Assembly (NCBI RefSeq): GCF_013167455.1
Contig: NZ_CP038328.1
Reading direction: 5' to 3' (one strand)
DNA from: Escherichia coli O157:H7
GTDB taxonomy: Bacteria > Pseudomonadota > Gammaproteobacteria > Enterobacterales > Enterobacteriaceae
Length of the DNA: 64,000 bases
Shown here: in pieces, positions 23,901-26,900 of the stretch
Numbering within the stretch: position 1 is the first letter of the stretch
Layout of the letters: each line of letters starts with the position of its first letter
Position numbers: made by a program

Positions 23901-26900
23901 TTTCGGTGATGGTGGTCTTCATCTCCGCCATCTCATCCGCAAGCTGGCTGTTGTCTATCAGCTCCCATAGCCCCTGAGCCAGATGCAGTTTTCCTATTTT
24001 TTCCCGGAAAAATTCCAGATACCCTTCACCATCATTGCTGGGCTGCCCGCTGACTTCCACAAACGCAGATTTCCCCACCAGGTTGACGCTGCGCACGTAA
24101 AACCAGAAATCCTTCCCGGGCTTAATGTGCGGGCCGGATACACTCCACTGACTGCCGGTCCCCAGATAACGGGCAGAGGTTTCCACCTGAGATGTGTCTG
24201 CGATTTTTGCCTCCGAAAACCAGAACTCAAACTGTACCGTCGGGTCATACACCGCAAGACGCGGGACCGCCGTTATCTGAAAATACCCCGGCGTCAGTTC
24301 AATGGTGGCGGGTACCGCAGGTGCATTAATCCTGAACGTGGTGGTGGCTGGTTCCCCCTGCTGGCCATAACTGTTAATCGCCCTGACCGTCAGGGCGTAT
24401 TCCCCCGGCGGCAGACCGCTGAAACGGTGCTCTGTATCCGCGGTGATGGCGGTGGTCACCAGACGGCTGTCCTGACCGCTTCCAATGGTCAGGCGCAGAC
24501 TGAAGCGCACGCCCTTCACCACCTTCGGCGTGTCCCATTTCGCCTGCGCCAGATACTGGCCGTCAGCTGCGCTCACCTCCACCGTCAGGTGCTGCACTGC
24601 CGGAGGGATGACGCTGTTCAGGGTGCCTGACTGCGGCTCAAAGCTGGCCCCGTTATCCACGATGGCTTCCTTTTCCGGTACGTGCTGCACCGCCGTGATG
24701 GCAAAGGTGCCGTCCGTGTTTTCCCGGATGGAGACACAGCGGAACAGGCGACGACGCAGTGACGGCAGGGAGAGTCCCCATACACCGTATGTCTCCACAC
24801 CATCAGGCAGGGTGCTGACCTGTATCCGGTCCGGCGCGGGGTGTGCAGTGATGGCCACGCTCACCGGCTTACCGCTGCCGTTAATCAGGTTCACCGTGGC
24901 GGCACCTGTCTCCGGCAGGGTCACCTCACGGTCCAGTGTCAGGGTGCGGCTGGCGGCATCGATGGACAGGATACGTCCGCCGGTCATGGTCCCGGCATAG
25001 TCGTTATCACAGATTTCAATAATGTCACCGGGTGTGTGACGCAGCCCCTGTGACCCGAGCGTGAAATCCACCGTCTGCGTTTCCAGCAGTCCGGTCTTTA
25101 TCACCCACAGCCCGGCACGGTGGGCCTGACCGCGACTGGTGCAACCGAACGCATCCATCTTCAGCAGGTTGCGCCCGTAGCGCAGTATGGCTTCCGGGTC
25201 TTCCACCAGTTCCGTGGAGGTCTGCCAGCCGTTCTGCGGGTCGGTGTAATTCACCTCCACCGCCGTGTGGCGGTCCTTCAGGGCGCTGAAGCTGTAGCGG
25301 AACCCCACGCCGTTATCATCCACCACCACATCGCTGCTGGTGTACGGCCACACCACATCCGACGGACGGTCCTGAACGAACGTCAGCGTCTGGCCGTTCC
25401 ATACCGGCATACAGCGCATCGCCGAGCAGAAATCACTGAGAACGTCCCACGCCTTACGCTGCTGTGACAGGTACGCATTAAACGTCATCCGCGGCTCTGT
25501 CCCTCCGAAGCCGTCCGGAACACGCTGGTCACAGTACTGCCCGATGGCATACAGCGCCCACTTGTCCACATCCGCGGCCCCCAGGCGTTTCCCCATCCCG
25601 TAGCGCGGGTGGGTCAGCATGTCCCACAGACACCAGGCCGGGTTGTTGCTGTATGCCGGTTTCAGACTGCCGTCCCAGATACCGCTGTAAGTGCGTTTTT
25701 CCGGGTCGTAGTTTGACGGCACCTGGATGATGCGACCGCGGATATGGTAGTTCACCGTCATCTGCTGACCGCCGAACTGCTCCGCATCCACCTGCAGCCC
25801 CACAATGGCCGTGTTCGGGTAGCACTGTTTCACATCGATGATTTCGGTGTATGACGACCACAGCGTTCTGTTCTGCAGCTGGTCCGTGGTGCTGTCCGCC
25901 GTCTCCCGGACCATCCGGATGTTAAAGGGCCGCTCAGGCAGATTCTCCAGAATCACCGACGCCAGGTACTGTGAGGTGGTCTTGCCGTTAATGGTGACAT
26001 CCTTTTCCGTCACCCAGTTACCGTTACGCTGCAGCTGAATCAGCAGGCGGACGGATGCCGGGTTACGGTCACCCTGTGAGGTGGTCTGCACCAGTGACTG
26101 CACCCCGAAGGTAACCCGCAGGCGGTCAATGTTCGCGGACGTAATGGTGCGCGTCACCGGCTTTGCCTTCGTCACTTCCACGCCCAGTGCGGTTTCAGAG
26201 CCGGATGACTCAAAACCTTCCGGCGGTGTCTGCTCCTGCTCCCCGGCGCGCCAGACCGCTGTCACACCATGTATCACAGGATTACCGTCCGTGTCCGTCA
26301 GCGGGGTTTTGTTCACCAGAATACTCTGCAGCCCCTTCACCGGACCTTCCACCGGTCCCTCACCGATGGCATCAATCACGCTCATCATCTGCGTGGACTT
26401 AAGATTGTCCTTTGCCTCAACCGGCGTGTGCGCCTTGCCGCCACCTTTACCCACTCTGTCCCCCTCTCCTGTCTGATGTCTGAATCTGTTTATGCCCCAA
26501 AAACGACAGGCACCCCGGAGGGTGCCTGTGTCATGACGGAATAAAATTTCTGAATTTCTTCACATTTTCTGTACGCCCCCGTGGCAGATATCATTCCCGG
26601 GCGTTACAGTTTTTTCGGGCCAATAAAAACAAAACTCCCTGTGGTTAATCTTCATTTTCTGTTCCCGCAGCCTCCATACACTGCGGGATTTTTTTATTTT
26701 CATCCCCGCCCGATAACCACCACTTTCCCGTCTCCGCCTTCATCACGGGTGCTGATGTCCTGGGATATCCGTCGTGAACCAACCAGCATTTCACCGTAAG
26801 GCACCGGCATCGGGTTCCCCTGAGCAATCATGTTGTCCAGTGAGGAAAAGTACGTGTTCTGTCTGCCGTTATCCGTTGCGCGGTAATCCGGTGTTTTTGC

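Follow-up and report, generated by a model that had tools for sequence, protein, structure and literature searches.

What occupies the 245 bp that separate tail genes I and J in a lambda-like prophage of Escherichia coli O157:H7? The locus lies within a stretch of 64,000 nucleotides of contig NZ_CP038328.1 (assembly GCF_013167455.1), here called the window and numbered from its first letter, in which a lambda-like tail operon is encoded on the minus strand, the late strand. The first-pass annotation of the window, made from the sequence alone, had noted the length of this I-J spacer (26455-26699), regarded it as noncoding and pointed to a strong hairpin in it as an apparent terminator. We report that, judged by homology, the gap holds a divergent allele of a known Hfq-dependent small RNA (sRNA) family, PasB / EcOnc22-24, on the strand opposite to the tail genes. 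The spacer as a whole is probably an sRNA 'moron' cassette at a known moron site, accompanied by a separate late-strand hairpin, hairpin A, of terminator or insulator type. The notion of a simply noncoding spacer did not hold, since positions 26549-26695 comprise an opposite-strand promoter, an sRNA gene and its terminator.

The sRNA gene was recognised by a covariance model and by alignments with PasB and the EcOnc22 locus. The model (R1) rests on 20 sequences from other subtypes, PasB and EcOnc22 among them, and on no window-type sequences. It matches 26601-26695 of the plus strand over its full length with 69.5 bits (E 8.7e-12), which is its sole match in the 64-kb window. The predicted sRNA is 61% identical to PasB and 66% identical to EcOnc22. 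Antisense placement was tested, and I and J indeed lie on the minus strand with the model match on the plus strand. Shared among the subtypes of the family are a 5' GCGUUA with a U-run after it, a stretch rich in A, the core AACUCC-N6-UUAAUCUUCAU and a terminator. In the window the core spans 26633-26655 (plus strand); it is the most conserved stretch of the sRNA body (alignments A4 and A5) and unpaired in the fold, and thereby a candidate seed region. The Rho-independent terminator, hairpin B (26663-26695, plus strand), was identified from the minimum free energy fold and the family alignment. It has an 8-bp stem formed by UCCCGCAG (26663-26670) and CUGCGGGA (26681-26688), a 10-nt loop and a U7 run (26689-26695) whose end sits 4 nt before the stop codon of I. 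Hairpin B is the only consensus helix of the family alignment and shows compensatory G-C to A-U changes; the stems of other alleles read CCCACAG/CUGUGGG and CUCCCG/CGGGAG. The automatic terminator scan missed it because of the 10-nt loop. As hairpin B faces away from the operon, a plus-strand transcription unit inside the gap is implied. Rfam 15, searched with the whole window at gathering thresholds and with the gap at permissive E-values, holds no family that covers the locus; the permissive scan of the gap gave chance-level matches only, e.g. anti-hemB with 18.5 bits.

Two experimentally detected sets of RNAs turned out to be relatives. PasB of enteropathogenic E. coli (EPEC) O127:H6 E2348/69 is an 83-nt RNA of prophage PP6 (NC_011601, 1466343 to 1466261, minus strand; Table S6 of PMC8550237), annotated between E2348C_1436 and _1437 in the orientation '(> <) >' and detected with the northern probe AATCCCGCAGTGATCGCGGAGCT (PMC8550237). 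There, both tail genes are on the plus strand, with the end of I at 1466255 and the start of J at 1466496, so that PasB lies antisense in the I-J gap, and its U7 run ends 5 nt from the I stop. The probe corresponds to the late-strand sequence of hairpin B and covers that hairpin. Uninduced EPEC cells express the tail genes hardly at all (baseMean 5-15) and PasB abundantly (482-1082). EcOnc22, EcOnc23 and EcOnc24 of enterohaemorrhagic E. coli (EHEC) O157:H7 Sakai are plus-strand Hfq peaks obtained by UV crosslinking and analysis of cDNA (CRAC) in Sp15, Sp14 and Sp11 (Tree et al. 2014, Table S2, PMC4104026). They run at ~85 nt on northern blots, are destabilised in an hfq deletion and have no known targets (PMC4104026). 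All three loci fall inside the I-J gaps of Sp15, Sp14 and Sp11, where I and J are on the minus strand, and the probe GGGAGAGAACGATGAAGATTAAC is late-strand sequence adjoining hairpin B that covers the stretch homologous to the window core. When the coordinates of Tree et al. were applied directly to NC_002695.2, the Hfq peak appeared to lie on hairpin A; this was an artefact of a shift between genome versions and was rejected. Anchored on AgvB1, the Table S2 coordinates, which refer to NC_002695.1, are ~137-146 bp below those of NC_002695.2 at 1.94 Mb, a shift large enough to put an sRNA peak off its place by more than the length of the peak. The correction of about +140 bp together with the probe sequence therefore identifies the EcOnc22 RNA as the PasB homologue and places the Hfq peak on the sRNA body.

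By position and sequence, PasB of EPEC and EcOnc22-24 of EHEC are thus the same positional family. This link is made neither in PMC8550237 nor in PMC4104026 nor in the preprint 10.64898/2026.05.13.724894: in Table S6 of PMC8550237 (Pearl Mizrahi et al. 2021), PasA and PasD have EHEC homologues listed and PasB has none, and the preprint (Zhu, Shabalina & Storz 2026) does not mention EcOnc. PasB and the window sRNA share the I-J slot, the antisense orientation, the hairpin UCCCGCAG...CUGCGGGA with U7 a few nt from the I stop, the CRP-like site followed after 24 nt by the -10 element, and the core AACUCC...AUCUUCAU. They differ in the 5' third, in the terminator loop and in the -10 hexamer (TATAAT in PasB, TATCAT in the window). 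Expression and Hfq binding have been demonstrated for PasB, whereas the window allele is known here from its sequence. The EcOnc22/23/24 loci likewise lie on the anti-late strand of the I-J gap with the same architecture; EcOnc22 differs from the window allele by an AATAAT -10 hexamer besides its 66% identity. A size of ~85 nt and Hfq dependence, demonstrated for PasB and EcOnc22, are accordingly predictions for the window allele. The odd spacer is in this way explained by an sRNA family that was detected experimentally twice under two unrelated names, which resolves the puzzle. The family comprises at least five divergent subtypes built alike in promoter, core and terminator; Rfam lacks it, and RefSeq leaves it unannotated at ~3000 loci.

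This number reflects a wide distribution. Matches to a 361-bp region around the gap, at 73-100% identity, were found in 151 phage records, mostly of Shiga toxin-converting phages. Among 5426 complete E. coli genomes, 785 contain matches to the gap alone, at 2991 places altogether (median 4 per genome), and RefSeq annotates no feature at them. The window allele is typical of EHEC-type prophages with several copies per genome, while PasB has been described as usually single-copy. Eleven diverse alleles obtained by BLAST (alignment A1) form a mosaic of very conserved and very variable blocks without uniform drift. For allele statistics, 135 loci were reduced to 73 unique versions of the region and to 56 unique versions of the promoter-plus-sRNA part. 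The viral-contig set used here had been selected by the CRP-like block described below. A viral-contig scan with the 14-mer AAAAAATCCCGCAG, tried as an unbiased sample of terminator B, was uninformative, as 104 of its 115 matches lacked the second arm and were mostly due to chance. Among the distant viral-contig alleles, L103, L070, L076 and L036 carry other terminator stems (CUCCCG/CGGGAG, CCCACAG/CUGUGGG) and may represent further subtypes; L103 and L070 keep the CRP-like block and are missing a recognisable -10 hexamer. The comparison with related junctions that had been proposed at the outset thus finds the same spacer in related phages, and no conserved small open reading frame (ORF) that fills it.

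The -10 hexamer of the putative sRNA promoter, TATCAT (26589-26594, plus strand), stands out as an invariant xATxAT in divergent surroundings. Other alleles have TATAAT, AATAAT or GATAAT at this place, with A2, T3, A5 and T6 invariant. A sigma-70 promoter scan of the gap found nothing, and no -35 hexamer was found for this promoter; TTCACA (26559-26564) was considered as -35 and rejected, because its spacing to the -10 is 24 nt. These bases form part of a CRP-like site, TCTGA-ATTTCT-TCACA (26549-26564, plus strand; TGTGA-N6-TCAGA on the late strand), which was recognised by its rarity, invariant half-sites and fixed spacing. Its centre at 26556.5 lies 32.5 bp upstream of where the -10 begins. 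The block with the highest conservation in the gap reads, on the late strand, AAATGTGA-AGAAAT-TCAGAAAT, in which TGTGA-AGAAAT-TCAGA agrees with the CRP consensus TGTGA-N6-TCACA at 9 of 10 core positions and has AAA/AAT flanks. TGTGAN6TCANA occurs at two loci in 64 kb, with 0.49 expected; the other one, at 3146-3161, is a CRP-type site of perfect palindromic form, TGTGATATAGTTCACA. Among the 11 alleles of A1 the half-sites do not vary and the 6-nt spacer does, and the conservation of this block rests only on A1, because the viral-contig alleles were selected with it. The -10 statistics and the distance from TCACA to the -10 are independent of that selection. This distance is exactly 24 nt in 51 of the 56 unique alleles, with intervening sequence in at least four unrelated forms. 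PasB is more abundant in overnight LB than in DMEM, the opposite of the CRP-repressed Spf, a pattern compatible with CRP control and not specific to it. Taken together, we regard the chances that CRP controls the sRNA promoter as about even. A CRP-like site at a fixed distance from the -10 is a testable hypothesis that would link a prophage sRNA to host carbon-source signalling.

The position of the -10 element would place the transcription start site (TSS) at the conserved GCGUUA, at ~26601, and predicts an RNA of 95 nt here and of ~91 nt in Sakai. By homology to the annotated 83-nt PasB, the start would be at ~26616. The 5' end is thus uncertain and might be processed, or else the TSS is mis-assigned.

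The hairpin of the first-pass annotation was confirmed one base away from its estimated position and is a second element, distinct from the sRNA and not part of it. Hairpin A (minus strand, element 26499-26529) was characterised by terminator scan, fold and covariation. It consists of a stem-loop at 26529-26506, CG, and a U5 run at 26503-26499; the late strand reads ACAGGCACCC-UCCG-GGGUGCCUGU followed by CG-UUUUU-GGGG. The stem has 10 pairs, of which 7 are G-C, closed by a tetraloop, with a stability of -20.8 kcal/mol, and is followed by CGUUUUUGG. It ranks strongest among the terminator-like hairpins at 20000-39999, and an 86-nt late-strand segment around it folds with z = -2.5 as compared to shuffles. 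The T-run reported after the hairpin is real and confined to the late strand, and it is invariant in 19 variants. Across these 19 distinct variants, 98% of the stem cells are paired. One pair changes from C-G to U-A in 5 variants, with U.G intermediates, and single-sided changes lead to G.U wobbles; if the opposite strand is read instead, 85.8% are paired. In the ASU11-type alleles, 13 of 73, the hairpin A segment is replaced, in 12 of the 13 by a late-strand hairpin unrelated to it, AACCCCGGUAUC-UGCU-GAUACCGGGGUU, with a U-rich run behind. In this spacer type, represented by phage ASU11 (L002, 560-830) and 12 other unique alleles, ~200 bp replace everything on the J side of the CRP-like block; in phage ASU11 itself this segment contains a different hairpin and, overlapping the start of J, a hypothetical ORF annotated with 66 aa.

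Other lambda-like phages, for which ~1600 records with a J homologue exist, show how far such elements extend. Lambda itself (NC_001416, 15445-15504) has a 60-bp I-J gap with AACCGCC-UGCG-GGCGGUU followed by UUGUCAUUU. In mEp213 the gap of 41 bp carries GGUGC-UUCG-GCACU and U7 directly before J, and at the I-J junction of HK022, AGCCACC-UUCG-GGUGGCU and U6 follow the annotated morons gp22 and srb. In Oslo and mEp013 the I-J junctions are 9-13 bp long and have no hairpin. The expectation of tightly packed I and J genes in lambda-like modules hence applies to Oslo and mEp013, and not to lambda, mEp213 or HK022 with its morons. Like hairpin A, the lambda hairpin is a GC-rich stem-loop on the late strand with a U-rich run, tens of nt before the J start; unlike hairpin A, it has no adjacent sRNA gene, and the two share no sequence homology. 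With the tools used here, no experimental description of a function of the lambda hairpin came up. Some short words (AAAATGT, TTTTAT, and GTGAA just before the hairpin) are common to the lambda gap and the window spacer, and the lambda gap may be a remnant or a precursor of the longer cassette. In HK022 (NC_002166, 13652-14137) gp22 and srb, the latter on the opposite strand, precede J and a canonical terminator follows them. The junction is therefore a recurrent moron insertion site. The recurrence of terminator-like hairpins before J in unrelated sequence forms, lambda included, suggests that they have a selected function there.

We conclude that hairpin A is an RNA element of the late strand, of the intrinsic-terminator type and under selection, located at a site already recognised for morons. 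It most likely serves as an intrinsic terminator or insulator that would be read through by Q-modified polymerase. The earlier suggestion of a terminator inside the late operon thus stands as regards type and place, in view of the terminator-like form, the invariant late-strand U-tract and the covarying stem within the operon.

Lambdoid morons are described, as cited in PMC4104026, as autonomous transcription units with their own promoter and terminator between late genes (Juhala et al. 2000). The I-J sRNA cassette resembles them in its own promoter and terminator, in its place between late genes, at the junction that holds gp22 and srb in HK022, and presumably in expression in the lysogen while the late operon is silent. 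It differs from them in its cargo, which is an opposite-strand non-coding RNA and not a protein gene. The preferred reading of the spacer as such a cassette plus hairpin A can be put as follows. The plus strand would carry a self-contained sRNA gene with the CRP-like site at 26549-26564, a -10 element at 26589-26594 without -35, a transcript from ~26601 to 26695 with its core at 26633-26655, and a hairpin at 26663-26688 with U7 abutting the I stop. In the lysogen, with the tail genes silent, the sRNA would be made from its own promoter and, by analogy with PasB, would pair through Hfq with host and island mRNAs. Hairpin A would act on the late-strand RNA: transcription without antitermination, which also runs antisense to the sRNA gene, would be stopped before it reaches J and lom. 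In lytic growth, Q-modified polymerase would read through it.

Several observations weigh against this reading. Depending on the unmapped TSS, the CRP-like site would be centred at about -42.5 to -44.5, compared with -41.5 for canonical class II sites, and the difference between LB and DMEM can be explained otherwise, e.g. by stationary phase. The predicted 95-nt RNA is longer than the 83-85 nt measured for PasB and EcOnc22. Expression of the window allele would have to follow by analogy from two detected alleles to which it is only 61-66% identical, and its -10 hexamer, TATCAT, is weaker than theirs. As for hairpin A, the strand asymmetry of the wobbles in the 10-bp core is weak (7 cells versus 3), and the U-tract is short, with 5 U starting 2 nt after the stem, so that the efficiency of termination is uncertain. 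Moreover, an insulator located downstream of the sRNA gene would give that gene no protection from late-strand read-through.

Other readings have to be measured against the same evidence. One could hold that the spacer is noncoding filler and that its sole functional element is an internal terminator or processing site which makes the late transcript discontinuous between I and J. The hairpin is indeed terminator-like and conserved and the gap unannotated in RefSeq, but ~150 of the 245 bp are taken up by a promoter, sRNA and terminator of the other strand that are homologous to experimentally detected RNAs, and the plus-strand sRNA has already been detected at the homologous Sakai and E2348/69 loci. 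The conserved -10, the CRP-like half-sites and terminator B, with its A-run on the late strand, make no sense for an element of the late strand only. We consider this reading very improbable, and even more so a small late-strand protein, either from a 47-aa ORF that overlaps the I stop or from an MKIN... ORF starting at 26654. The earlier label 'ORF-free' was approximately right, as late-strand ORFs of 47 and 34 aa are present and unconserved; a hypothetical protein is annotated in the gap of two phage records, and ATGAAGATT is conserved with a weak Shine-Dalgarno sequence before it. The ORF of ATGAAGATT, however, has ATG in 34 of the 56 unique alleles and ACG or ACA in the rest, varies in length from 6 to >42 aa and is shifted in frame by 1-nt indels; the ATGA overlap with the I stop exists in some alleles only, the 47-aa ORF needs an I gene that ends in GGGGATGA, and the conserved nucleotides coincide with the sRNA core. 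With start codon, frame and length unconserved among the 56 alleles, the small ORF was rejected.

For hairpin A itself, the main alternative is that it serves mainly in mRNA processing or stability, as a 3' protector of the upstream tail mRNA or as a 5' stem-loop that protects cleaved J mRNA, and so sets the relative expression of J. From what is known of lambda Q antitermination, Q-modified polymerase should ignore terminators, and any role in the lytic phase would then have to be post-transcriptional. Late-strand hairpins that occur at several junctions between genes of the tail operon (behind J, lom and the presumed V gene) fit this idea, and so does the full complementarity of the sRNA to the late mRNA just upstream, potentially a substrate of RNase III. 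The invariant U-tract directly after the stem is nevertheless the signature of termination and not of a stabiliser, and the U-run is kept in all five independent hairpin versions. A stability element is thus possible, though unlikely. The idea that hairpin A forms the 3' module of an Hfq-binding RNA from the late strand, an sRNA or sponge derived from the 3' untranslated region of I that contains the full antisense of the sRNA and upon induction titrates or destroys it, is a weaker alternative and appears improbable. Upstream of the hairpin the late strand is A/G-rich and then U-rich (GAAGAAAUUCAGAAAUUUUAUUC) and, with the terminator hairpin and U-tail, resembles an Hfq-binding module as judged from the general architecture of Hfq-dependent sRNAs; the block upstream of hairpin A is also the most conserved part of the gap. 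Yet the Hfq peaks listed for the Sakai gaps include none on the minus strand, and no late-strand gap RNA was present in EPEC RIL-seq (in which interacting RNAs are ligated and sequenced), both in uninduced cells; no convincing late-strand promoter was found in the gap by scan and manual inspection; and fixed half-sites with a free 6-nt spacer suit a dimeric DNA-binding site better. The late-strand candidates TTCAGA/GATACA and CATGAT, considered as promoter of a short RNA ending at hairpin A, were poor and unconserved and were rejected. A functionless remnant, namely the terminator of an earlier late-strand moron whose cargo has since been replaced, seems quite improbable as well. HK022, with morons and then a terminator at the junction, and lambda, with a hairpin lacking cargo and a gap sharing short words with the spacer, would agree with such a history. 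It is at odds with a stem that compensatory and wobble changes have preserved in alleles that have diverged to ~60% in the sequence next to it, and with the replacement of hairpin A by a different hairpin and U-run where it might simply have been lost.

A more far-reaching proposal joins both strands into a switch, for which we see little likelihood at present. In the lysogen, a CRP-activated Hfq-dependent sRNA would act on host mRNAs. Upon induction, the Q-antiterminated late transcript, which would carry the complete antisense of the sRNA and then hairpin A, would base-pair with the sRNA. This would both inactivate the sRNA and produce a cleavage point at which the J mRNA, under the protection of hairpin A, would be uncoupled from the tail genes upstream of it. 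If this were true, a hairpin and U-run before J would belong to lambda-like tail operons in general, a feature as yet undescribed. Both the CRP-like site and the recurrence of hairpins before J are new but modest additions, and nothing here overturns current understanding.

The boundaries of the spacer follow from the ORF list and from Pfam. Its length of 245 bp was borne out: the ORF of tail assembly gene I extends over 27377-26700 (minus strand) with the stop codon TGA at 26702-26700, and the J ORF over 26454-22978 (minus strand) with the start codon GTG at 26454-26452. The flanking ORFs carry the Pfam domains Lambda_tail_I and GpJ, respectively; K lies upstream of I and Lom downstream of J. 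The ribosome-binding site of J, GGAGAGGGGGA (26469-26459), forms with the GTG an initiation region at 26469-26452 of the minus strand. The first 11 residues of the window J align with the ATGGGCAAAGG starts of other alleles and with MGKGSSKG of lambda J. Further minus-strand hairpins with U-runs lie at junctions of the tail operon, at 33793-33779 after the presumed V (major tail) gene, at 22959-22940 right after the J stop and before lom, and at 22259-22238 after lom.

The window holds a second site of prophage sRNAs at 48641-48897, where AgvB (48641-48702, plus strand, 96.5 bits) abuts a convergent STnc100 (48704-48897, minus strand, 142.7 bits). This is the classic anti-sRNA moron site downstream of PR', and three tRNAs are located at 49670-49918 (minus strand). 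AgvB/AsxR with the convergent STnc100-type sRNA resemble the I-J sRNA in being prophage-encoded, Hfq-binding, short and antisense to late transcription, and AgvB/AsxR share with it a conserved 3' and a variable 5' part. They differ in their location at the Q-S moron site and not in the tail operon, in their unrelated sequence and in their length of 51-60 nt. Further Rfam matches are C4 antisense RNA (57501-57588, minus strand) and isrK (57613-57689, minus strand), both at the far prophage end, and the core sRNA sraL (268-408, plus strand) near the start of the window.

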